64,000 nucleotides of DNA, taken from positions 10,276 through 74,275 of the forward strand of contig CALVRN010000004.1 of assembly GCA_944358675.1 (NCBI GenBank), written 5' to 3'. Below, piece by piece: positions 8,740 to 51,068 of this stretch. Position numbers and translations under genes: made by a program. Source of the DNA: an uncultured Bacilli bacterium (GTDB lineage: Bacteria > Bacillota_I > Bacilli_A > RF39 > UBA660). The notes under the pieces were generated by a model. That model was not told the origin of the DNA. It ran no database searches and saw nothing but the letters and a program-made list of their open reading frames with translations. Positions within the stretch are counted from its first letter, which is position 1. Each line of letters begins with the position of its first letter.

Positions 8740-10122
8740 TTATCTTTTAGTTACTGATGATGTTCCACAGCCTTTAAACATATCAGTTGCACTAGCAGAA
8801 TTTAAGATTGCCCAGCCATCTCCAACGTAAATTGTTTTTAAATTTGAATTTCCAGAAAACATACTATTTAAATTAGAAACTTTTGCAATATCAAAACTAG
8901 TTATATCTAAGCTAGTTAAACTTGAGCAGTTTTCAAACATACTATTCATACTAGTTACTTCGCTAGTGTTAAAGCTGTTTAAATTTACATTTGTTAATTT
9001 AGTATTACTATAAAACATTTGACTCATATTTGTAACACTGGATGTGTCAAATGAACTCAAATCTAAATTATTAATATTAGAACAACCATAAAACATATTG
9101 CTCATGTTAGTCACTTTACTAGTATTGAAGTTATTAAAATTAATACTTGTAAGAGCTGTATTACCATAGAACATGTTTGACATGCTTGTTACATTAGATG
9201 TATTAAATGAGCTTAAATCAAGATTAGTTAAACTACTACATCCATAAAACATCGCATCCATATTAGTTGCAGTCATAGTATGAAGGTGCTGAAGAGTAGC
9301 TGTTTTTAAGGCAGTAAATCCATTAAATAAATAACTAGAATTGGCGTTTGCCATTACTCCACTATATCCACCAATATATAAATCATATTTAGAACTATCA
9401 CTAGAGTTAGGAACAACCCATGCCATTACTCCACCATCTTTGGCACTTGAAACATCCCAACTTGCTGTTGCTGTGGATGGAACTGTATTATTATCTAAGA
9501 AAGTTACACTTACTATGTTTGTTTTATATTGAGGTGCGTGAAAATCACTAGAAGCATTTTGGGCCCAACTTTGTAAAAGATTACTAATCACTGGTTCATC
9601 TGGATAAGCTCCAACTTCATCCATTGCTATAGTTGCATAAGTACCATTGTTAAATTCAGCAAATAATCTTCCTTTATTTAAAACAGTGTTTGTTTCTACT
9701 CTAGAAATAAATTCTCTCATTTTTTGATTTATATTAGTATCTTCTGTTGTTGAAACGTAATTTTTAATTATACTTATATCAGAATAAGTATAAATTATCT
9801 TTTTTGCATCCATCTTATTAATAAGATTATCACAAAAGCTATCAACAATACCTGCAGACATGTTACAAGAACCATTTTCAAAAACGATTACATATGGCTT
9901 TGACTCAGATAATTGTGTGGTTAAATTATAATTGTTATCTTTTAAATAATTAGCAACAGATGACAAATCGTAAATTGACTCAACATTATTATAATTATAA
10001 CTGTTTTTATAATTTGTGGTTAAATTACTAAATTGTACATAAAGTAATATTAATATCGTTAAAACAAAGGTTGATACAACCAATGATTCTGCAAGTAAAA
10101 AGCCCCTATTATTTATTTTCAT
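8740..10122 (-). CDS. Prepilin-like N-terminus fused to DUF285/BspA-type leucine-rich repeats (putative pilus-borne adhesin)
   Basis: MKINNRG|FLLAESLVV has Glu at +5. The C-terminal roughly 160 aa consist of about six repeats of the type MFYGCSSLTNLDLSSFNTSNVTSMSN. Confidence 0.75.
   Translation of the reverse strand: MKINNRGFLLAESLVVSTFVLTILILLYVQFSNLTTNYKNSYNYNNVESIYDLSSVANYLKDNNYNLTTQLSESKPYVIVFENGSCNMSAGIVDSFCDNLINKMDAKKIIYTYSDISIIKNYVSTTEDTNINQKMREFISRVETNTVLNKGRLFAEFNNGTYATIAMDEVGAYPDEPVISNLLQSWAQNASSDFHAPQYKTNIVSVTFLDNNTVPSTATASWDVSSAKDGGVMAWVVPNSSDSSKYDLYIGGYSGVMANANSSYLFNGFTALKTATLQHLHTMTATNMDAMFYGCSSLTNLDLSSFNTSNVTSMSNMFYGNTALTSINFNNFNTSKVTNMSNMFYGCSNINNLDLSSFDTSSVTNMSQMFYSNTKLTNVNLNSFNTSEVTSMNSMFENCSSLTSLDITSFDIAKVSNLNSMFSGNSNLKTIYVGDGWAILNSASATDMFKGCGTSSVTKR
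8802..9267 (-). repeat. Coding tandem repeats (about 25-aa DUF285/BspA LRR units)
   Basis: The periodic L(D/N)LSSF(N/D)TS.VT.M..MF pattern is visible in the translation and as recurring DNA words. Confidence 0.7.
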
Positions 10123-10228
10123 GATTTTTCTCCTTTTTATAATTGTTTTTATTCTAAATATATTATATAATATATCTAGGATAAAATCTAGTCCTAAAAA
10201 TAAAAGAAAGAAAGGTAGGCAAACATAT

Positions 10229-11593
10229 ATGATGAGAACATTTGACTTTGCAAAAATGCCAATAGTTGATATAATAAATGAAATTTTAGTTGATTCTTCA
10301 AAAAGAGGTGCGAGTGATATTCACTTTGATCCATATGAAGATCATTTACTTATTAGAATAAGAATTGATGGTGTTCTAATGGATTACGCATCAGTTCCTG
10401 ATGCTTATCGCGATTATTTAGTAACTCGCATTAAGACAATTTCTAAAATGAATATTACGGAGTCTAGGTTACCTCAAGATGGGGCAATTAAAGAGACATT
10501 AGAAGGTATTGATTTAGATTTACGTGTTTCTTCACTACCAGTTAGTACTGGTGAAAAAATTGTTATTCGTATTTTAGACTATACGAGAAGTATGGCAGGA
10601 TTAGATGAACTTGGCTTTAGCGAAGAAAATTATAAAAAGGTGCTTGAGATGATTGGGGTTCCAAATGGAATAATCTTAGTTACTGGAGCAACCGGTAGTG
10701 GTAAAAGTACAACTGTTTATTCTATGCTTCAGCACTTAAATACATCAGCAACCAATATTATTACTGTTGAAGACCCAATTGAAATGGATATAACTGGTAT
10801 TAACCAGGTTCAAACAAATTCAAAGATTGGTTTAACTTTTGCAACTGCTTTAAGATCTATTTTGAGACAAGACCCTAATATTATTATGATTGGTGAGATA
10901 CGTGATACAGAAACAGCAAAAATCGCTGTTCGTGCTTCTATTACTGGACACCTAGTATTATCTACATTACATACTAACACGGCTTTAAATACTATTGAAA
11001 GATTAATTGATATGGATGTCCAAAGATATTTACTAGCTTCAGCTTTAGAAGGAGTTATTTCTCAAAAATTAGCAAGACAATTATGTCCACACTGTAAAGT
11101 CAAAAGAAAAACTAGCGAATATGAAAGAATGGTTTTTAAATCAGTTTTAAATAAAGATATAGATGAAATATATGATACTGAAGGTTGTGAACATTGTCAT
11201 GATGGATATAGTGGTCGTATTGCTATTCACGAAGTTCTTAGAATCGATCAGGATATCCGTGATGCTTTAAGTAATGAAAAATCAAAAGAAGAGATTAGAA
11301 GATTGGTTTATGGAACAGGACATGTAACAACAATGCTTCAAGATGGATTAGAAAAAGTGGTTGAAGGTCTTACTACATTTGAAGAAATACTTAAATTAAT
11401 AGAACTTGAAGATGATGATAAAATAAGTAGTAATAGTGAATTAAAAGAAGCTATTATGGAGCAAAAAGAAAATTTAATGGCCGAAGAAAGAACTCAAGGT
11501 GAATACATGGGACAACGTGAAGAAAATACAAATAATGAAACAGACCAAAAAAACATCTACAGTTATGAAGATGTTGAAAGTTTAAATATTTAA
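10229..11593 (+). CDS. GspE/PilB/ComGA-family type IV pilus / competence pseudopilus assembly ATPase
   Basis: Walker A GATGSGKSTT, Asp box, tetracysteine CPHC...CEHC, and GEIRD. The ATG at 10229 behind AAAGGTAGG is preferred over the ORF-track start at 10121. It also has an unusual acidic C-terminal tail. Confidence 0.9.
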   Translation: MMRTFDFAKMPIVDIINEILVDSSKRGASDIHFDPYEDHLLIRIRIDGVLMDYASVPDAYRDYLVTRIKTISKMNITESRLPQDGAIKETLEGIDLDLRVSSLPVSTGEKIVIRILDYTRSMAGLDELGFSEENYKKVLEMIGVPNGIILVTGATGSGKSTTVYSMLQHLNTSATNIITVEDPIEMDITGINQVQTNSKIGLTFATALRSILRQDPNIIMIGEIRDTETAKIAVRASITGHLVLSTLHTNTALNTIERLIDMDVQRYLLASALEGVISQKLARQLCPHCKVKRKTSEYERMVFKSVLNKDIDEIYDTEGCEHCHDGYSGRIAIHEVLRIDQDIRDALSNEKSKEEIRRLVYGTGHVTTMLQDGLEKVVEGLTTFEEILKLIELEDDDKISSNSELKEAIMEQKENLMAEERTQGEYMGQREENTNNETDQKNIYSYEDVESLNI

Positions 11594-11618
11594 AACACAG
11601 CTTATTGAGCTGTGTTTT
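11592..11618. terminator. Bidirectional terminator between convergent genes
   Basis: AAAACACAGCT-tattg-AGCTGTGTTTT; it overlaps the last codons of 11602..12075. Confidence 0.7.
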
Positions 11619-12075
11619 CATATTTGGCAATTGCTTTTGCAGTAACGTTTTTTAAATCTCCTTTAGTTACTGCTGTAATGGTCCTAGTTTCATTAGGCTT
11701 TAAATTTTCACCGATGTTACCACGTAAAGTGATGACTTCATTACCATCTTTATCTTGTAATACAATATCGACATCACTTATATTACAATCAGTTGTAGTT
11801 GTATTTGTAACATCTGCGGTAAATGTGCTATAACCATCTTCTGTAATTAAAGAAATATTTGTAAATTTTAGGCCTTCATAGTTTTCTTCTTTAATAACTC
11901 CTTCTGAGGTGTTTGCGACAGTTTTAGGTGTTCCACTGGCTATTTTTTCTTTATCAAAACTAAATGATATAATAAGTCCTATAACTATTGCAACAATTGC
12001 AACAATTAGAATTATTAAAGGTAACCTGTTTTTTTTAATAAAATTAATAATTTCTTTTTTATTTATATTTCTCAT
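11602..12075 (-). CDS. Membrane-anchored small beta-rich protein, unknown function
   Basis: N-terminal TM helix and a C-terminal domain with the FTADVTNTT...ITAVTKGDLKNV pattern. Paralogous in pattern to 39441..39878. Confidence 0.6.
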   Translation of the reverse strand: MRNINKKEIINFIKKNRLPLIILIVAIVAIVIGLIISFSFDKEKIASGTPKTVANTSEGVIKEENYEGLKFTNISLITEDGYSTFTADVTNTTTTDCNISDVDIVLQDKDGNEVITLRGNIGENLKPNETRTITAVTKGDLKNVTAKAIAKYENTAQ

Positions 12076-39440: not shown

Positions 39441-39878
39441 TTATGATAAAACTTGAGTGGTTATGTTTAATTCAACACTTTTAATATTTTTTAAATTTTT
39501 GTTTGTTTTAACTGTAATGTTTTTTTCTTCTTCACCATTTATAATATCACCTAAATAACTTGTCATAGTAGTTTTATTATTTTGATTATCTTTTAAAGTT
39601 ATAGTTATTGGAGATATTTTTAACATATTTGAAGTCATATTTGTAGCTTTAGCTGTAAAATAGAATTCATCATCTTTTTTAAATATTTTGATATCACTAA
39701 ATAATATGTGATTTTGAACAGTGTTTTCAAAAGTTATGTGGATAAGTTCTGGTTCTTTTTCTATTTCTTCGTTTTGATGTTTTGGAATAAAGATATAAAT
39801 TGTACCTATTATAATAATTAATATAATGGAGATTATAGCTATTTTCATTGGTGTAATAGCTTTAATATCTTGTTCCAT
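39441..39878 (-). CDS. Membrane-anchored small beta-rich protein, translationally coupled to the HerA-like ATPase
   Basis: TAATG stop/start overlap with the upstream gene. N-terminal TM helix, and the FTAKATNMTSN...ITVKTNKNLKNI pattern resembles 11602..12075. Confidence 0.6.
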   Translation of the reverse strand: MEQDIKAITPMKIAIISIILIIIIGTIYIFIPKHQNEEIEKEPELIHITFENTVQNHILFSDIKIFKKDDEFYFTAKATNMTSNMLKISPITITLKDNQNNKTTMTSYLGDIINGEEEKNITVKTNKNLKNIKSVELNITTQVLS

Positions 39879-41632
39879 TAATTAGCCTTCCAAGTTTCGA
39901 AGACATTACAACTACTTGATGAAGGTGCTGGATCTGGCATTTTCATTCTGACAATAGTTGGTATTTTGAAAGCACCACCAAAGGCCATACATGTTCCTGG
40001 CTGCAAGGTTTTTTGTTTTTCAACAATATCTGCTGAAATATTTGGAAGCATTTTTGTTATATAATCTAAATCTCTTGGATGGGTAATCTTAAAAATTAAG
40101 AAGTTCGCACATTGTGAAATAACGGTATCAGATATTTCAACTGGTCTTTGAGAAATAAGATTGAAAATCAAACCATATTTACGACCTTCTTTAGCGGCTC
40201 TTTCGAATATATTATAGCCTATTAGAGCAACATCTCCATCATTTTGAACATATCTGTGAGCTTCTTCAACAAATATATGGAATGGAATAGATGCTCTGTT
40301 TTTAAGACTTTTAGTAAAATTAAATAACATTTTTGTGTAAATTTTAACAACTACTTTGGCAAACCAATCTTCTACATCTTCTAGATTAAAGTTAATAACT
40401 TGAGCTTTCTTGCTATTTTTAGCAACTAATGTAGCTATATAATTTTCCATGGTTATAAATGTAGGATAACGTAAATACCTTGAATTTTCAGATATAGTTA
40501 GTGAATGAAGTCTTACTTTTAGTTCAATAGCATCTGCATAGGTATCTGTATTATTTAATAAACCTTCACTGATTAAAGTAAATTCTAATGCTTTTTCTAA
40601 ATCTTCTAATGTATAAAATTTAATTTCTTTTGGTTCATATTTATCTAATGATTCATCTATGAAACCGGTAATATATTCGGTCATTAAGATACTTTCAGGA
40701 AATTGCCCTTGAGTATCAATTGTAAAACATTCTCTAAATTTTCTAGTATATCCAATACCTTGAACTGGTGCTTCTAAATTAAATTCATTAGTTGAACAAT
40801 TAGCTAAAATGGCAAAAACATCGTTTCTTTTACTACTGGCTGTTTGATTTGTGTATAAAATTGTCATTATTGCTTTGGCGATTAAATGATTTTTGTATTT
40901 TGTACTCATTTCATCATCAGATGCGAATATATTAACTAGTTTTAACATTCTTTCAATGATTGTCAATTGTGAGTGTTTATCAGCACGTAATAACAAAGCC
41001 ATATCATCAATATCAAGTAACCAAAGTGGTATAGATAGTATTTCGCCATCAGTTTGATGAACGTTAGTTGTATAGAATTTAAAGTTTAAGTTGGGATTTA
41101 TTTGATTGATGTTTTGTAAGGCATTATGGTATTCACCATAAGCATCAAATATAAAGAAATTAGATCTAAATGGCAATAATTTAGGATTTTCAAAAACATT
41201 TTGAAGTAATCTTGCGACACCACATGATTTACCAGAACCACTGTTACCAAATATAGCCATATGACTACTGAATAAATCATTAATATCAACATAAATTGGA
41301 TGACTATCGTAAAGCGGACTTTCACCAATTACAAATGATGAAGATGTATCTGCACCTAATATTAGGCCCACTTCTTCTTGACTTATTAATCTTAAATGTG
41401 AATTAAAAGTTGGTTTTCTGATAACACCACCTACGAATTTCCCATTAGTGATCTCACCTAAAAATCTAATTTTGATTATTTCATTCCCAACATCTTCTAC
41501 TTCACCTAAAATTTTCTTTTTTTCATCTTCAAAGATAACATGCATATTCATGATGTTTGTTGAAATCGAACCATCTTTTGGTGTTTCAACATGTGCTTCA
41601 GTATCACTGATATAAAGTATTTTCCCAAACAT
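39878..41632 (-). CDS. HerA/DUF87-like (FtsK-HerA superfamily) ATPase
   Basis: N-terminal barrel-like segment, Walker A IFGNSGSGKSCGV, Walker B-like HIFVEEAHRYV, 584 aa. SD GGGGAGG upstream. Confidence 0.75.
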   Translation of the reverse strand: MFGKILYISDTEAHVETPKDGSISTNIMNMHVIFEDEKKKILGEVEDVGNEIIKIRFLGEITNGKFVGGVIRKPTFNSHLRLISQEEVGLILGADTSSSFVIGESPLYDSHPIYVDINDLFSSHMAIFGNSGSGKSCGVARLLQNVFENPKLLPFRSNFFIFDAYGEYHNALQNINQINPNLNFKFYTTNVHQTDGEILSIPLWLLDIDDMALLLRADKHSQLTIIERMLKLVNIFASDDEMSTKYKNHLIAKAIMTILYTNQTASSKRNDVFAILANCSTNEFNLEAPVQGIGYTRKFRECFTIDTQGQFPESILMTEYITGFIDESLDKYEPKEIKFYTLEDLEKALEFTLISEGLLNNTDTYADAIELKVRLHSLTISENSRYLRYPTFITMENYIATLVAKNSKKAQVINFNLEDVEDWFAKVVVKIYTKMLFNFTKSLKNRASIPFHIFVEEAHRYVQNDGDVALIGYNIFERAAKEGRKYGLIFNLISQRPVEISDTVISQCANFLIFKITHPRDLDYITKMLPNISADIVEKQKTLQPGTCMAFGGAFKIPTIVRMKMPDPAPSSSSCNVFETWKAN

Positions 41633-42983: not shown

Positions 42984-43007
42984 AAAAAGACTGGATTAAC
43001 CAGTCTT
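42984..43007 (-). terminator. Intrinsic terminator after the coiled-coil paralogue cluster
   Basis: On the minus strand, AAGACTGG-ttaat-CCAGTCTT is followed by a T-run, just 3' of the stop at 43011. Confidence 0.7.
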
Positions 43008-43010
43008 AAA

Positions 43011-43703
43011 TTAAAAACGAAATGTTTTGCGGGGCAAGGTCATAACTAGAACTTTTTTCCCATCTTCTGCATTAATAAATTGACAGTCTTCTGGAAGCTT
43101 TTCTTCTGGTGGTGTTAGACTTTTAACTTCTTCTTCTGTCATATATTTTTGTTTCTTTAAACAGTTTATAATAGCTTTATTTTCTATATTATCTGTTTGA
43201 GCTAATTTTTTAAAGTTTACTTTAAATATGACAGTCGGAATGTACTCTTCGATTACTTTTAATATCATTAAATCTATGAAATCTATATATGAGGCTAGGC
43301 TATGGTCAATAAGAGTCTTTCCGTCAGATGTTTTATCAGCAAAATTTAAATCTAATGATGTGTTTACAAATATATTGCCCATCCTATCACATATTTTAAG
43401 CATTAAAGTTACTGGAGTATCTTTGTATACTTCTAAAAGGTGATATTTTGGAAAACGTGAAAAAGTATTTCTCATATATTGTAGTTCGGTTGTAAGCTCA
43501 TCTTCCGGAATATTTGTAATGGCAGAAACTTCTTGAACTAAATCGCCTATGCTTATGTATATTTGGGAATCTTTATTTAAGTCTGCCATTTTACTTTTTG
43601 TTTTTTGAATCTCACTTTCTAAAGAATTTAACTTTTCAGTTAAACAACTAATTTGTTCTCTTTGAGAGAGAGATGTTTCAACTGTTTCATTTTCTTTTTT
43701 CAC
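43011..43703 (-). CDS. Coiled-coil protein, paralogue 1 of 3, unknown family
   Basis: GTG at 43703 behind AAAGGAG overlaps the stop of paralogue 2 by 17 nt. Shared motifs are IGDLVQEVS, SDGKTLIDHS and AIINCLKKQKY. Confidence 0.6.
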   Translation of the reverse strand: MKKENETVETSLSQREQISCLTEKLNSLESEIQKTKSKMADLNKDSQIYISIGDLVQEVSAITNIPEDELTTELQYMRNTFSRFPKYHLLEVYKDTPVTLMLKICDRMGNIFVNTSLDLNFADKTSDGKTLIDHSLASYIDFIDLMILKVIEEYIPTVIFKVNFKKLAQTDNIENKAIINCLKKQKYMTEEEVKSLTPPEEKLPEDCQFINAEDGKKVLVMTLPRKTFRF

Positions 43704-44424
43704 TTTTACCACTCCTTTTAAGTGTTTTTTGCATTCCAATTTCACACTCTTTTTGTTTATTTAGAATATTTAAAATTGCTTTCAGTAATAATTCTCTTGG
43801 ATGAAAAGAGTTAAGCTCTTTAGAGGCGGCTAAAGAATATAAATTAAATTTGCATATAATATTATCCATGTCCTCTTTTTTAATTAGAAGTTGTGTTGTT
43901 ATTTTTTTATTAGGATACTCCCCAATATAATAAGCGATTGTATGTGTGTGTCCAAACAGTGTTTTACCATCTGCCTGAAGAGTGAATAAATAACTATAAA
44001 AACTATGGTTATAATAAAATTCCATGGAAGTTTGTTCATCGTATGAAGCAAAATTTTCTGTTTTTTGACTTTGGATTGTTAAAAATAGGCGGACCGGTTC
44101 TTCTGTCCAAAGTTCTTCGCGTGATTTTTCGCTACAGGAACTTTTTTCTGTTTTACAAATATTGCTGATATTTACATCATAGTCCATATTTTCTACACTT
44201 ATACCTGTTAAGTTAGATAATTCTTCTATTAAATCGCCTAACCTTACAGAGACAACCTCATTTCTTTCAAACATTTCTTTTTTTGCAGTTTCTAACTCTT
44301 CTTTTAGTGGCTCAAGTGTCTTTTCAAACTTTTCTCGAAGGTTTTGAATTTGAATTTCAATGTTTTGGACTCTTTTTTCTTTTTCCTTATATTCTTTTAC
44401 TAATTCTTCTAATGATTTTTCCAT
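43687..44424 (-). CDS. Coiled-coil protein, paralogue 2 of 3, unknown family
   Basis: N-terminal heptad-rich 55 aa, then LGDLIEELSNLT, QADGKTLFGHT and NIICKFNL. Confidence 0.65.
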   Translation of the reverse strand: MEKSLEELVKEYKEKEKRVQNIEIQIQNLREKFEKTLEPLKEELETAKKEMFERNEVVSVRLGDLIEELSNLTGISVENMDYDVNISNICKTEKSSCSEKSREELWTEEPVRLFLTIQSQKTENFASYDEQTSMEFYYNHSFYSYLFTLQADGKTLFGHTHTIAYYIGEYPNKKITTQLLIKKEDMDNIICKFNLYSLAASKELNSFHPRELLLKAILNILNKQKECEIGMQKTLKRSGKSEKRK

Positions 44425-44500
44425 ATTATTTCCTTTCTAAATTTTGAAAATATATTACACTCTTAAAAATTTGTATAGTATTTTAAAACTTATATATAAT

Positions 44501-45319
44501 TTATTTTCTATATTTTAGTTTTTTCATCATTTTGCTTTGAGAGTTGTTTTCCTTGGCCATAGGTGTTTGTATAATCTCTTTTATTGTATATTTATGTTTA
44601 TGTAGACAGTCTATAACGGCTTTTGATAATAAGTCATTATCATAGTTATTTTTAAAATTTACTATTTGTTTTAAATTAAATGAACATATAATATTTTCGA
44701 TTGACGTTTTATCAATTATGCAAAATAATCCAAGTATTTCGATTTTCTTATGATCTTCAGGTCTAACAAATGAGGATACTTTGACAGGTCTTTTTTTACT
44801 ATGTTCTAATAAGGTTTTGCCATCAGCTTGGATATCTGATAAATGTCCATCAAATGTAATATTTAATGGTGGCTGACCTTTCGCATATATATTTATATTT
44901 ACATTTACTGTTTCTTTGGTATTTTTGGCAATATATTTTATAAATTCATCTTTATTTGAAAGTTCTTTATATGATTCTATCGGTTGGTAGTTAACATAAG
45001 AGCGATGTCCTGATGTTTCGATATCTTTGATATTTATTTTTGTTATGTTTGATATTTCATTTATAATATCTTTGAGTTTAATATGTGTTTTATAAGTTAA
45101 TATACATTTATTTAAATTTTGTCTTGCTTCATCAAGTTTATCATTTATTGGAGATGTTTCCTGTTCGAATATTTTGTTTAAAAAAGTTATTTGTTCTTCT
45201 AATGCTGTTACTTTTTCATCTAATGCTATTCTTAAACCATTAATTTTTTGTTCATAATCATCTATTTGATGTTTAATTATTTCGTATTCACTAATATATT
45301 CTTCTATGTTTTTATACAT
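44501..45319 (-). CDS. Coiled-coil protein, paralogue 3 of 3, unknown family
   Basis: N-terminal coiled coil, then LKDIINEISNIT, QADGKTLLEHS, NIICSFNL and AVIDCLHKHKY. Confidence 0.65.
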   Translation of the reverse strand: MYKNIEEYISEYEIIKHQIDDYEQKINGLRIALDEKVTALEEQITFLNKIFEQETSPINDKLDEARQNLNKCILTYKTHIKLKDIINEISNITKINIKDIETSGHRSYVNYQPIESYKELSNKDEFIKYIAKNTKETVNVNINIYAKGQPPLNITFDGHLSDIQADGKTLLEHSKKRPVKVSSFVRPEDHKKIEILGLFCIIDKTSIENIICSFNLKQIVNFKNNYDNDLLSKAVIDCLHKHKYTIKEIIQTPMAKENNSQSKMMKKLKYRK

Positions 45320-45388
45320 ATAAATTCCTCTTTCTTTTAGGTAATATTATATAGAAATATCAATTTAATTGTCAATTATTAATTTGCT

Positions 45389-46429
45389 TTAAACTGTTTT
45401 TCTTAAAATTTCTAATAGTTTTTTTGAAATATTTTCTTTATTTTTAATTAAATAACGACATATATTAGTTCTTTCCCTACCAAATTCTAACATATTTAAA
45501 TCACCCGTGTTCAAGTACTGTTTATACCCATAAGTACTTGATAAAACTTGAATTAAATAAATGTATGGTAAATATTTTAAATCTTCTTTAGTTAAGCTGG
45601 AATATTTCATAAATTCTTCTATATATAAAACTAAATTATCAGTGTTAAATTTGCCATTTTTACACTCTTTATCCATATAGTTATATGAACGAGCTATTTC
45701 CCAAGCTATGGGAAGTTCACCAGATGCCGAGAAATCTAAAATAGCTTTTATATTATCGTTTGAATCATAAATAAACTGAAGAACATTATAATCTCCGTGG
45801 GTTTTCTTTATAGTTATATTGGTTATGGCTTGAAATGTTTGATTTTGTTTTACTTCATTTAAAAAGTTTATTTTATCTATTAAATCTCTTTTTATTGCTT
45901 CTCCATAAATATTATCTTTTTCAGCTAACAATATTAAAGCTTGGTGTTTAGCTATACTTTCATCTATATCTTGAGCGCTTTTAAACTTGTTTATATTAGC
46001 TTTAAACATATCATCATAAGGGTAATCTTCTAAGGCGTTGATGATAAGTCCTAAATTTTTTGCAGACTCTAAAAGGTCTTTTATCTCGCCGGTATATTTA
46101 TCTTTGGTTATGCCTTCGATATATTTTTGAAGGATAATAATTCTATCATTATATTCAAAATAGTTTTGATTATTAGTGCATGGAATATATTCTGGGACTG
46201 GCAAGCCTTTTTGTCTTAAATGGTTAATCACATGCACTTCTTTGAGTATCATTTTAGAGTTAAACTTAGACTGAAATTCTTTTAAAATATACTTTCTATT
46301 ATGTATATCAGTAAGTTTATATATATTCGCATTTCCACCATTAATTACCTCTATTTTATCGATGTCTAGATTGTAATGTTTTTTTACTTCGGCTTTGATT
46401 ATTTTTTTATTTAAACTTTTTTCTATCAT
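45389..46429 (-). CDS. Aminoglycoside-phosphotransferase-fold (APH/choline-kinase/CotS-like) kinase
   Basis: Catalytic loop HGDYNVLQF (HGD...N) and the ILDFSAS metal-binding Asp. Confidence 0.8.
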   Translation of the reverse strand: MIEKSLNKKIIKAEVKKHYNLDIDKIEVINGGNANIYKLTDIHNRKYILKEFQSKFNSKMILKEVHVINHLRQKGLPVPEYIPCTNNQNYFEYNDRIIILQKYIEGITKDKYTGEIKDLLESAKNLGLIINALEDYPYDDMFKANINKFKSAQDIDESIAKHQALILLAEKDNIYGEAIKRDLIDKINFLNEVKQNQTFQAITNITIKKTHGDYNVLQFIYDSNDNIKAILDFSASGELPIAWEIARSYNYMDKECKNGKFNTDNLVLYIEEFMKYSSLTKEDLKYLPYIYLIQVLSSTYGYKQYLNTGDLNMLEFGRERTNICRYLIKNKENISKKLLEILRKTV

Positions 46430-46430
46430 A

Positions 46431-46856
46431 CTAACCCCTATTTAAAACGGTTTTAACTTTTTCCAAGACTTCTTTTTGTTCTTGATATGTTACTTTATTA
46501 ATTGCTTTTTGGAGTGGTAACCATTTACCTTCTGTAAAGTTTTCTTTTTCTAAAGGAATAATGTTTTGTGGTTCATCTATTTTAAATAAATAGACTTTTA
46601 TGTTTTTATCACTATTTTCGGTGTCAGAAAAATAATTAAATTCACCTATTTTATCAATTAAATCTTCTTTTTTTAATTTTATTTGAGTTTCTTCTAGTAC
46701 TTCTCTTATAGCTGTTTCTACAAAGGTTTCTTCTTCTTTAAAATGACCTTTAGGTAATACCCAATTATCATCTTTGTCTTTTAAAAGAACAGTATAAATT
46801 TGCCTATTTTGAATATGTGTGACAACTCCCATGCACGAAATTATTGGTTTAGACAT
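46431..46856 (-). CDS. NUDIX hydrolase
   Basis: Nudix box GHFKEEETFVETAIREVLEETQI. Its stop lies 1 nt from the kinase start. Confidence 0.88.
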   Translation of the reverse strand: MSKPIISCMGVVTHIQNRQIYTVLLKDKDDNWVLPKGHFKEEETFVETAIREVLEETQIKLKKEDLIDKIGEFNYFSDTENSDKNIKVYLFKIDEPQNIIPLEKENFTEGKWLPLQKAINKVTYQEQKEVLEKVKTVLNRG

Positions 46857-48762: not shown

Positions 48763-49137
48763 TTATTCGCATGAAGCTTTGTTATATTTGTAGCTATATT
48801 TTGTGTTATTGGCTGTTTTTGTAATTGTTATAGTGACAGATGCGGTATCTAAACTACAACTTGAATTTGATGGTAACTTAATATTTTTGGGTAAATAGCC
48901 TCCACTTTGTAATGTAGATACATTAACGGTATATGAGGTTTGATCTTTTACTGTCGCTTTATTGTCACTTAGCCAATTTCTTGCTCCCAAAATAATTGAA
49001 TCTCTGGTATTATCATCGGCATTATTTTGTCCTTTTTTTATACTACTTGTTACACTCGGAACAATAATTAGTAGTAGTAGTGACAAGATTACGATAACGC
49101 CTAATAATTCAATTAAAGTAAAACCTTTATTTTTCAT
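48763..49137 (-). CDS. Type IV pilin / ComGC-like major pseudopilin
   Basis: MKNKG|[20 protein letters not shown] is a canonical prepilin signal. Overlaps the enolase stop by 11 nt. Confidence 0.85.
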
Positions 49138-50365
49138 CACCAATTACCTCTTCAATTCGAAGTAGTTCATTGTATTTGCAAGTTCTATCGGTTCTTGAAA
49201 GTGAACCTGTTTTTATTTGACCTAAATTTAATCCAACAGCTAAATCAGCAATTGATGTATCTTCTGTTTCCCCACTACGATGAGAAATTATTGTTTTATA
49301 ACCGTGCTTCTTAGCTAAGTTAATAGTATCTATTGTTTCAGATATAGTTCCTATTTGGTTTATTTTGATTAAAATAGCATTACCAGCATGCATTTCAATT
49401 CCTTTTTGCAAGTATTTTTTATTTGTTACAAATAAGTCATCACCAACCAATTGAACTTTATCTCCATATCTTTCAGTCATTTTTTGGAAACCTTCCCAAT
49501 CGTTTTCATCAACTGGATCTTCGATTGAAACAATTGGATATTTATCTAATAATGTTTGATAATAATCAATTAATTCATCAGTTGTTAATTTTAGGTTTGC
49601 TCCTTTTAAATTATAAATTCCATCTTCATAGAATTCACTAGCGGCTACATCGATGGCAAAGTTAACATCTTTACCCGGTGTATATCCAGCTTCATTAATA
49701 GCTTTGATAAGTAAATCTAATGCTTCTTCATTTGTATTTAAGTTAGGGGCAAAACCACCTTCATCCCCTACTCCTGTATGATATCCTGCATTATTTAAAA
49801 CACTTTTTAGATGATGGAATACTTCGCTTCCTATTTGTAATCTTTTACTAAATGTTTCAGCAACAGGCACAATCATAAATTCTTGAAAATCTAATCCGTT
49901 ATCAGCGTGAGCTCCACCATTTAAAATGTTCATCATTGCTCTTGGCATGGAATATTCTTTACCAACATATTTGAATAATGGTTCACTACTATCTAAGGCA
50001 GCTGCTTTTAAATTAGCAAGTGAGATACCTAATATAGCATTCGCACCATATTTTGATTTTGTTTCTGTTCCATCTAATTCTAATAATGTTTCATCAATTT
50101 TTCTTTGATTATGTGGGTCCATGCCTATTAATGCATCTTTTAAGATATTATTAACATTATTTACAGCAGTTAATACTCCTTTCCCCATGTATCTTGATTT
50201 GTCATTATCTCTTAGTTCTAAAGCTTCTCTTTCTCCTGTTGAGGCTCCTGATGGAACAGCAGCTCTACCTATAATTCCATTTTCTAAAATAACATCTACT
50301 TCAACAGTAGGATTTCCTCTTGAGTCTAAAATTTCTCTAGCTTTTATATTTTTAATTTTTGACAT
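49127..50365 (-). CDS. eno: Enolase (phosphopyruvate hydratase)
   Basis: [30 protein letters not shown] and LLRIEE motifs. Confidence 0.97.
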
Positions 50366-51068
50366 GTTTTTCTCCTCCCTCAAAATTTTTTAAAATATCT
50401 TTCTGACTTAAAAAATATTTTAAACCTCGATATTTATTTAACCAATATCTGTAGTCATTTAAATCTTCCAAAAAGTCTTCTGAATGTGTTTTTTCGAATG
50501 TATCAATATAATTTTGAATGTTTTCTTTAAATTTTAACCAATAATCTAGGCTATATTCAATAGTATAGTTTATGTGTGGTCCTCTTAGATTGGGATCTCC
50601 TTTTGGTGGTCTAAAGAAAATATCATCATTGGTGATTATTTCGGCGACTTGATAGTTTATAGGTATTTCTTTTCCTGTAATTTTACTAATGAATTTGTTT
50701 TGTGTACTATCATGTGAATTTACAAAATCAAAATCAAATAAATATAAAACATCAGAACAGGCCGCATTAGTTACTTTTAAAACCTCATCTTTTCCTTTGT
50801 TGTTTAAACTTTCTTTTGTTTGAACAAAATTCAAAATTTTATCCATGGCATTACATAAAATATTTTTATAATAATTATAGAAAAATATTTCTGAAAAATT
50901 ATTATAAAATTCGTTTTCATATTCTTTAATTATAGATTCTAATACCTGTTTTATTTCTTCATCTGATAAATCTTCATATGTGTTCAATTCTGATTTTAAT
51001 TCTTCCATAAAATCATTAAATAGTTTTTCATCAAAATAAGAAGTATAACTATTCTTTTCGTTTTCCAT
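50352..51068 (-). CDS. Hypothetical acidic protein
   Basis: 238-aa ORF overlapping the eno start by 14 nt. No recognised motif. Confidence 0.5.

Follow-up and report, generated by a model that had tools for sequence, protein, structure and literature searches.

An apparently lineage-restricted orphan family of predicted coiled-coil proteins, locally amplified in an uncultured Bacilli bacterium

The DivIVA, GpsB and EzrA families comprise proteins with an N-terminal coiled coil, encoded by stand-alone genes that lie amid core genes and carry housekeeping-type promoters; these families are slow-evolving and are not amplified in tandem. A second described group, the orphan immunity-type gene arrays situated by polymorphic toxin and type VII secretion system (T7SS) loci of Firmicutes, encodes cytoplasmic proteins and is characterized by variable tandem copy number, rapid divergence, pseudogenes and crossover chimeras. 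Both groups resemble the gene array described here, which is located in a 64,000-nt stretch of DNA of an uncultured Bacilli bacterium (contig CALVRN010000004.1, positions 10,276-74,275 of the forward strand; G+C content of approximately 27%), hereafter called the window. In this array three paralogous genes of an orphan family follow, on the minus strand, the genes of a Nudix hydrolase and an APH-fold kinase. All coordinates given below are window positions, and L- and P-numbers denote the related loci and related proteins compared with the window.

The orphan family differs from DivIVA, GpsB and EzrA in having no sequence or fold similarity to them. A DivIVA open reading frame (ORF) of loci L018/L019 matched the hidden Markov model (HMM) of the family with E 2.8e-5, coiled-coil composition being the only shared signal. 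The difference from the immunity-type arrays is that no toxin, LXG/WXG or T7SS gene is present in the contexts of the orphan family that were examined, and that the family is mostly single-copy, with a conserved strong promoter and a long coiled coil. Two other systems show a partial likeness: (i) phage Mu Gam-like proteins, in which a long N-terminal helix is also followed by a beta-rich domain, and (ii) the Nudix-containing PADLOC candidate PDC-S07, whose model is weakly matched by the Nudix protein of the window (E 2.5e-4, 18.7 bits). The latter score is at the level of the generic Nudix fold, and neither the kinase nor the paralogues match any PADLOC model.

The five ORFs occupy the minus strand from 46856 to 43011 in the order Nudix, kinase, paralogue 3, paralogue 2 and paralogue 1, and their coordinates confirm the tight spacing reported in the initial annotation of this DNA. 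Paralogue 3 (44501-45319) encodes 272 aa and paralogue 2 (43687-44424) 245 aa. Paralogue 1 (43011-43703, 230 aa) begins with a GTG codon preceded at 8 nt by an AAGGAG site, although the mechanical ORF extends back to 43745, and it overlaps paralogue 2 by 17 nt (43687-43703). The proteins are of cytoplasmic type, without a signal peptide, and their isoelectric points (pI) range from 5.2 to 8.6, i.e. they are not basic overall.

Several lines of evidence bear out the view that these proteins are true paralogues sharing islands of conserved motifs. A three-way alignment displays the motifs GDL(I/V).E(V/L/I)S, DGKTL..H, NIIC.FNL and A(I/V)I(N/D)CL.K.K, tblastn comparisons between the copies give E-values of 5e-11 to 7e-7, and the family HMM matches all three (E 1e-33 to 3e-61, the latter value for paralogue 2). 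At the motif boxes, leftover repeats of 33-47 nt with 72-79% identity can still be seen in the DNA. The coiled coil of about 55 aa that had been described at the N-terminus of all three proteins has to be modified: the helix exists, but it spans about 70 aa in paralogue 3, according to the AlphaFold2 model, and is shorter in paralogues 2 and 1.

When 1.84 billion representatives were searched exhaustively with the HMM, 196 matched at E≤1e-3 and 97 at E≤1e-10. Most of these proteins were full-length, with 200-260 aa, and the family size is thereby set at a minimum of 196 clusters (50% identity). In word-indexed searches, 5.8 billion proteins yielded at least 13-18 clusters, all of them metagenomic and nameless; the sole named member of the family is an NCBI entry entitled 'hypothetical protein [Bacilli bacterium]'. 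In a pattern scan of 185,579 species genomes the family was found in at least three metagenome-assembled genomes (MAGs) labelled 'uncultured Bacilli bacterium', one of which is a 1.34-Mb chromosome; this count is a lower bound, since the patterns were derived from a close subfamily.

Comparison of the paralogues with Pfam, NCBIfam, PHROGs and PADLOC yielded coiled-coil noise only. In PADLOC-DB v2, paralogues 1 and 2 had no match and paralogue 3 matched only DruC, over the coiled coil (E 0.081). Among 80 family members searched against Pfam and PHROGs the matches were scattered and confined to coiled coils. The full profile found coiled-coil and de novo helical proteins only among PDB sequences; with a profile of the globular domain alone, no PDB sequence was retrieved at E≤10 and the best Pfam match was no better than E 0.029. 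No relative of the family was found in IMG/VR, scanned with the close-subfamily patterns, or in GenBank phages and PLSDB plasmids with paralogue 3 as the query, and a full-text search of the literature gave nothing relevant. Two of the 80 members matched Mu Gam model PF07352 (best E 6.4e-5) and one matched phrog_491 (E 0.0055). A Gam identity was nevertheless rejected: the window proteins and the globular-domain profile gave no such match, Foldseek returned no Ku/Gam structure, and the matches most likely reflect coiled-coil composition. On the strength of these sequence comparisons, the paralogues appear to be a lineage-restricted orphan family of uncultured low-GC (gut) Bacilli.

Inspection of the region between the kinase stop codon and the start of paralogue 3 revealed a sigma-70-type consensus promoter on the minus strand (45375-45346; TTGACA, 18 nt, TATAAT), which had been overlooked previously and is the sole 12/12 match to the consensus in the segment 39500-47300. 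In L008, L002, L009, L010, L015 and L017 the paralogue-3-type gene is likewise preceded by these hexamers (or variants with one mismatch), by a spacer of 18 nt and by an AAGAAAGxGG ribosome-binding site, so that seven loci, including the window, share the arrangement. Among them are L010, whose surroundings are unrelated, and L009, where both Nudix and APH are missing; window positions 45386-45320 align by blastn with the upstream region of the latter.

The only terminator-like hairpin of the same segment is an intrinsic terminator on the minus strand (43007-42987), 3' of paralogue 1 and before ftsY, composed of an 8-bp stem with four G-C pairs followed by a T-run, in agreement with the earlier observation that a terminator follows only the last gene. 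Conservation of the promoter with or without Nudix and APH suggests that the paralogues most likely constitute an operon of their own, extending from 45375 to 43007, and are probably transcribed separately from the Nudix-APH genes. The proposed single transcription unit of five genes is thus split by the consensus promoter, which makes separate units probable. In L004 the promoter is missing and the Nudix gene abuts the family gene, which indicates that co-transcription occurs in this lineage.

In close relatives with flanking proteins of mostly 88-98% identity (84-92% for ylxM), we compared the slot that separates RNase J from ftsY. The window and L008 contain Nudix, APH and three copies of the family gene in this slot. 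In L001/L002 the order is an insertion sequence (IS), Nudix, APH and three copies, of which the first is different, and L015/L016 carry one copy, then Nudix, a 108-aa ORF and APH. The slot of L004 holds Nudix and one copy, that of L009 one copy only and that of L017 two copies only. The IS of L001 (5744-6880) and L002 (5114-6250), placed between RNase J and Nudix, encodes a 378-aa rve-family transposase. The 108-aa ORF of L015 (8255-8581), between Nudix and the kinase gene, has neither a Pfam match nor a counterpart in the window.

Most relatives possess a single family copy amid core genes. More distant loci place the gene in unrelated contexts: L010 adjoins candidate yabG-, yabP- and yabQ-like genes (named from translations) and ftsEX, L011 lies in the cinA to alr region, L013 in the mreCD to sigma-factor region and L018/L019 between pflA and frr, while L020 and L021 contain four and three tandem copies, respectively, before ireB-ruvX-mltG. 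In five of these core-gene contexts (L010, L011, L013, L018 and L020) neither Nudix nor APH is present, and no other gene is a constant neighbour of the family across the loci examined.

The comparison of relatives that had been recommended reveals one to four copies, with Nudix and APH variably present. A Nudix gene, with or without the kinase gene, does recur beside family members in several closely related genomes. However, the conserved linkage expected by the initial annotation is contradicted by L009 and L017, where the same slot lacks both genes, by L004, which lacks the kinase, and by the five distant loci without either. Judging from the varying contents of the slot and of the distant loci, the Nudix/APH linkage is confined to one narrow clade, in which it is optional and rearranged. 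It had also been remarked that the cluster occupies the place of smc upstream of ftsY; this holds for position only, as there is no SMC sequence or fold similarity, and the slot in relatives is simply that between RNase J and ftsY. No paralogue has an SMC-related Pfam match, and none of the eight window ORFs scanned (the five largest and three smaller ones) is smc.

Evolutionary rates were calculated as ratios of nonsynonymous to synonymous substitution (dN/dS) between the window and L002, L004, L008 and L009, with dS being similar across gene classes. The ratio was 0.02-0.07 for the flanking core genes (RNase J, ftsY and HerA), 0.10-0.18 for Nudix and APH, and 0.32-0.48 for the paralogues, i.e. 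about 10-fold that of the flanking core genes and always below 1. The paralogues are therefore strongly diverged, as had been noticed, and evolve in place, much faster than their neighbours at equal dS. Values that never exceed 1 demonstrate accelerated or relaxed evolution and not diversifying selection, the pressure that had been invoked; the paralogues appear to be under weakened purifying selection.

The three copies have different histories. Paralogue 3 clusters with every single-copy gene of the related loci in a neighbour-joining (NJ) tree, which identifies it as the ancestral type. Paralogue 2 is an older duplicate and an apparently dispensable copy, and in the tree it falls together with the first of the two L017 copies (46% identity). 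In L008 its counterpart (10896-11641), which lies in the most divergent segment of that locus (66-77% nucleotide identity), is broken up by a frameshift and a stop codon, leaving ORFs of 41, 136 and 60 aa; it represents either a pseudogene or an MAG assembly error. Paralogue 1 is the most derived copy, with a shortened coiled coil and a long branch in the NJ tree. It is 92% identical to its orthologue in L008 and 73-83% identical to those of L001/L002 (dN/dS 0.37-0.48), and its C-terminal extension (PPEEKLPEDCQF...RKTFRF) is kept in P0008-P0012.

Traces of recombination are visible throughout the array. A block including Nudix, APH and paralogue 3 (46800-44400; 8464-10900 in L008) is 99-100% nucleotide-identical between the window and L008 (dS 0-0.03) and ends sharply inside the 5' end of paralogue 2, whereas the flanks are 84-96% identical (dS 0.3-0.6), which suggests a recent recombinational import of the block. 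In the second gene of L002 the body is that of paralogue 3, whereas the 3' end, which overlaps the start of paralogue 1, is of paralogue-2 type, with the junction inside the AVINCLNKQK box; such a structure is the signature of unequal crossover. Protein P0021 (NCBI MGN1379731.1, 485 aa) contains two complete family copies arranged head to tail; either the genes have fused, or the stop codon that separated two tandem copies has been lost. The NJ tree indicates that the array of L020 is an independent expansion. Independent arrays of two to four copies, a fused copy, a pseudogenised copy and a chimera imply that the array keeps changing. The tandem arrays of L020 (6169-9474) and L021 (5774-8189), upstream of ireB-ruvX-DUF1292-mltG, belong to a distant lineage.

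The structure of paralogue 3 was modelled with AlphaFold2 from an alignment of 80 sequences, with a mean predicted local distance difference test (pLDDT) score of 86.5 and a predicted template modelling (pTM) score of 0.74. In the model, residues 5-75 form a single helix, residues 77-249 fold into an alpha/beta domain made up of five helices and seven strands, and the protein ends in a disordered tail that is basic. A first run with 14 sequences had reached a pLDDT of 71.5 and placed DGKTL in a low-confidence loop, and the Foldseek list obtained from it was discarded. With the confident full-length model, the best Foldseek matches had E-values of 0.24 (PDB) and 0.052 (BFVD), with template modelling (TM) scores of 0.22 or less; a known fold was to be accepted at E≤1e-3 or TM≥0.5, and the matches in both databases lay outside these limits. 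The structural check of paralogue 3 that had been suggested thus produced a confident model without a structural match to a known family. Together with the Pfam, NCBIfam, PHROG, PADLOC and PDB-sequence results, this upholds the statement that no family can be recognized for the paralogues.

Residues D84, E88, Q164, D166, G167, H173, A234 and N237 (paralogue 3 numbering) are each conserved in more than 85% of the 80 members, position 168 is Lys or Arg, and position 172 Glu or Asp, in 85-90% of them, and the last 10-25 residues of the family proteins are almost always rich in Lys and Arg.

Several structural candidates were examined and set aside. Ham1/ITPase/Maf structures recurred in the Foldseek lists at noise level (E 0.24-2, TM of about 0.15-0.2). 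A helix-turn-helix reading of GDLIxELSxLTGIS conflicts with the model, which runs this segment on into a strand, and no helix-turn-helix model matches it. A GreA/DksA-like hairpin is at odds with the single, continuous predicted helix, and a SRPBCC/Bet v1-like fold received no support from Foldseek. Not counted among these rejected candidates are the PD-(D/E)xK nucleases, which were considered because of E88, D162 and D166-G-K168 and in which an alpha-beta-beta-beta-alpha-beta core carries D...(D/E)xK on adjacent strands; no nuclease structure was found among the Foldseek matches to the confident model, and the D162/D166-x-K168 spacing is atypical for this motif.

The explanation that we tentatively favour, while holding it short of probable, is that of an autonomous, locally amplified orphan family of oligomeric coiled-coil accessory or scaffold proteins, not immune effectors. 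The family gene is an autonomous unit with its own predicted strong housekeeping-type promoter, usually present as a single copy amid core genes. In the genome of the window it has been duplicated into an array reaching from the promoter at 45375 to the terminator at 43007, and this array is reshaped by unequal crossing-over within the conserved motif boxes. The long N-terminal helix may oligomerise each protein, mixed assemblies of paralogues being possible. The alpha/beta domain of unrecognized fold may present a metal or ligand site, perhaps a catalytic one, formed by D84, E88, Q164, D166-G-K168 and E172-H173, and the short disordered Lys/Arg-rich tail could tether the protein to a polyanion (nucleic acid or membrane). 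The product would then be an abundant cytoplasmic accessory or scaffold-type protein.

A number of points weigh against this explanation. Its functional part is what we infer, with no homologue, fold match or conserved partner to anchor it, and promoter activity and oligomerisation are likewise predictions. In L004 and L015 the Nudix gene lies on the same strand beside the family gene with a gap of 17-22 nt, in the window the Nudix-APH pair is located directly upstream of the array, and Nudix stays adjacent in three gene orders (window/L001/L008, L004 and L015), which may signal functional coupling. Fast evolution, copy-number variation and the IS of L001/L002 also fit a conflict locus. The Foldseek comparison used the full-length model, whose 70-aa helix can lower the scores, and the overall pI, which is not basic, weakens a reading as nucleoid proteins.

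Different functions may be envisaged for the cluster, of which the one put forward in the initial annotation, a conflict or defence module, seems unlikely. Here the Nudix hydrolase and the kinase would act on a nucleotide-derived signal or substrate, the paralogues would be sensors or effectors, and all five genes would form one system. The paralogues do have a dN/dS about 10-fold that of the flanks, but it is below 1 everywhere, and the arrays that vary in copy number and undergo unequal crossover are surrounded by core genes rather than a defence island. Within one clade, three gene orders place Nudix, APH or both beside a member of the family, the Nudix-APH-paralogue-3 block appears to have been imported recently (99-100% identity to L008) and an IS adjoins the cluster in L001/L002; against this, both genes are missing from the slot in L009 and L017 and from the contexts of the five distant loci, and the conserved consensus promoter divides the cluster into two units. 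The weak match of Nudix to PDC-S07 (E 2.5e-4) amounts to generic Nudix similarity, and no paralogue matches a PADLOC or PHROG model. Two of the three outcomes that had been named beforehand as refuting the defence reading, namely linkage that is not conserved and, probably, separate transcription units, are what we found, and homology lends the reading no support. The rates, the varying copy number and the recurrence of Nudix in three gene orders still speak for it to some extent, but as one unit the five-gene system goes unsupported. A variant of this idea, in which the undescribed fold supplies the variable part, sensor or effector, of a conflict system that is new and nucleotide-based, associated with Nudix and APH in some lineages and with an array that diversifies specificity, is in our estimation distinctly unlikely.

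It is rather unlikely that the alpha/beta domain is an enzyme (a metal-dependent nuclease or hydrolase) that dimerises through the coiled coil, with the paralogues as isozymes of diverged specificity. The conserved residues are mostly charged or polar and gather in two short segments, a pattern typical of catalytic or metal sites, yet the Cys and His positions are not invariant, no hydrolase or nuclease class resembles the family in fold or sequence (Ham1/ITPase/Maf being noise), and a core enzyme would not usually be pseudogenised or have so high a dN/dS. A further reading takes the paralogues for structural proteins of the spore that act together with a coat kinase like CotS/CotI, in keeping with the rapid evolution, lineage specificity and frequent tandem duplication of coat proteins; the N-terminal part of the kinase weakly matches CotI (E 3.6e-5), and the copy in L010 lies beside the candidate yabP-, yabQ- and yabG-like genes, named from translations and not by database match. 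We nonetheless regard a spore function as very improbable, because the promoter is a perfect housekeeping sigma-A-type consensus and not one of sigma-E or sigma-K, the kinase scores 22.9 bits with the CotI model, whose cut-off is 550, and most loci carrying the family lack the kinase. Hardly credible at all is the proposal that the paralogues are decaying, functionless lineage-specific ORFs, as the broken paralogue 2 of L008 and the elevated dN/dS might imply: the ratio is 0.3-0.5 and not about 1, at least 196 clusters at 50% identity retain fixed motifs, the co-evolution signal sufficed for a model with a pLDDT of 86.5, and both promoter and ribosome-binding site are conserved.

The Nudix gene (46431-46856, minus strand, 141 aa) and the kinase gene (45389-46429, minus strand, 346 aa) are separated by 1 nt (position 46430) and are a separate two-gene unit upstream of the array, with which they share a variable slot in one narrow clade. 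The Nudix protein belongs to the Nudix superfamily, matching PF00293 with E 5.9e-15 (55.9 bits against a cut-off of 21.1), and its translation contains a complete Nudix box, G-x5-E-x7-REVLEETQI, readable as GHFKEEETFVETAIREVLEETQI. None of the NCBIfam equivalog cut-offs was reached, MutT, NudB-like and others all being below threshold. Its orthologues show 98% (L008), 88% (L001/L002), 83% (L015) and 73% (L004) identity; L009 and L017 have no such gene.

The second protein belongs to the APH / protein-kinase-like phosphotransferases: it matches PF01636 (37.5 bits against a cut-off of 23.2) and possesses the catalytic HGD and Mg-binding DFS motifs. In the APH consensus an Asn follows the catalytic Asp by five residues. 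The catalytic loop of the kinase (45780-45800) reads HGDYNVLQ, with Gln at this position, from which activity appears plausible, although the enzyme may be atypical. Equivalog cut-offs for homoserine kinase type II and CotI were not reached (40.8 vs 271, 21.9 vs 255.9 and 22.9 vs 550 bits). The kinase gene is present in L008, L001/L002 and L015, and absent from L004, L009 and L017.

Downstream of the array, ftsY, ylxM and a gene for a HerA-like ATPase continue on the same strand, and RNase J is encoded divergently upstream. The HerA-like ATPase (39878-41632, minus strand, 584 aa; PADLOC HerA E 2.4e-103, PF01935) directly follows ftsY-ylxM, a position held in Bacillus by ffh. The next gene overlaps that of the ATPase and encodes a 145-aa protein (39441-39878, minus strand) that carries a membrane anchor at its N-terminus and matches no Pfam family. 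All related loci show this pair in synteny. Constraint on HerA is at the level of core genes (92-98% identity, dN/dS 0.02-0.05), and its partner is fast-evolving (55-74% identity, dN/dS 0.19-0.23). No SIR2, DUF4297 or NurA partner was seen with this pair.

Elsewhere in the window, a prepilin-type protein with a GFTLIELL N-terminal motif (48763-49143, minus strand) overlaps the 3' end of the enolase gene (49127-50383, minus strand), and an unannotated 238-aa ORF (50352-51068, minus strand) overlaps its 5' end; this arrangement is kept in L002, L015 and L017. A T2SSE-type ATPase is encoded at 10121-11593. A 460-aa protein (8740-10122, minus strand) contains DUF285 repeats ('Mycoplasma protein of unknown function'), the presence of which is consistent with a Mollicutes-related, reduced-genome lineage of Bacilli.

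The newness of the family consists in having no detectable relative, and no new mechanism has been demonstrated; the locus also cautions that adjacency to Nudix and kinase genes, together with rapid divergence, is insufficient for calling a defence system. Its recurrent amplification and chimeras provide a compact natural example of the remodelling of a paralogue array. If the fold and the family are truly new, they would offer a defined target: a strongly promoted, widely conserved and fast-evolving cytoplasmic protein. The hosts are uncultured gut Bacilli whose reduced genomes, approximately 1.3 Mb in size, should contain few dispensable genes, and learning what this protein does could bring to light a new activity, cell-biological or conflict-related, in a section of the gut microbiota about which little is known.

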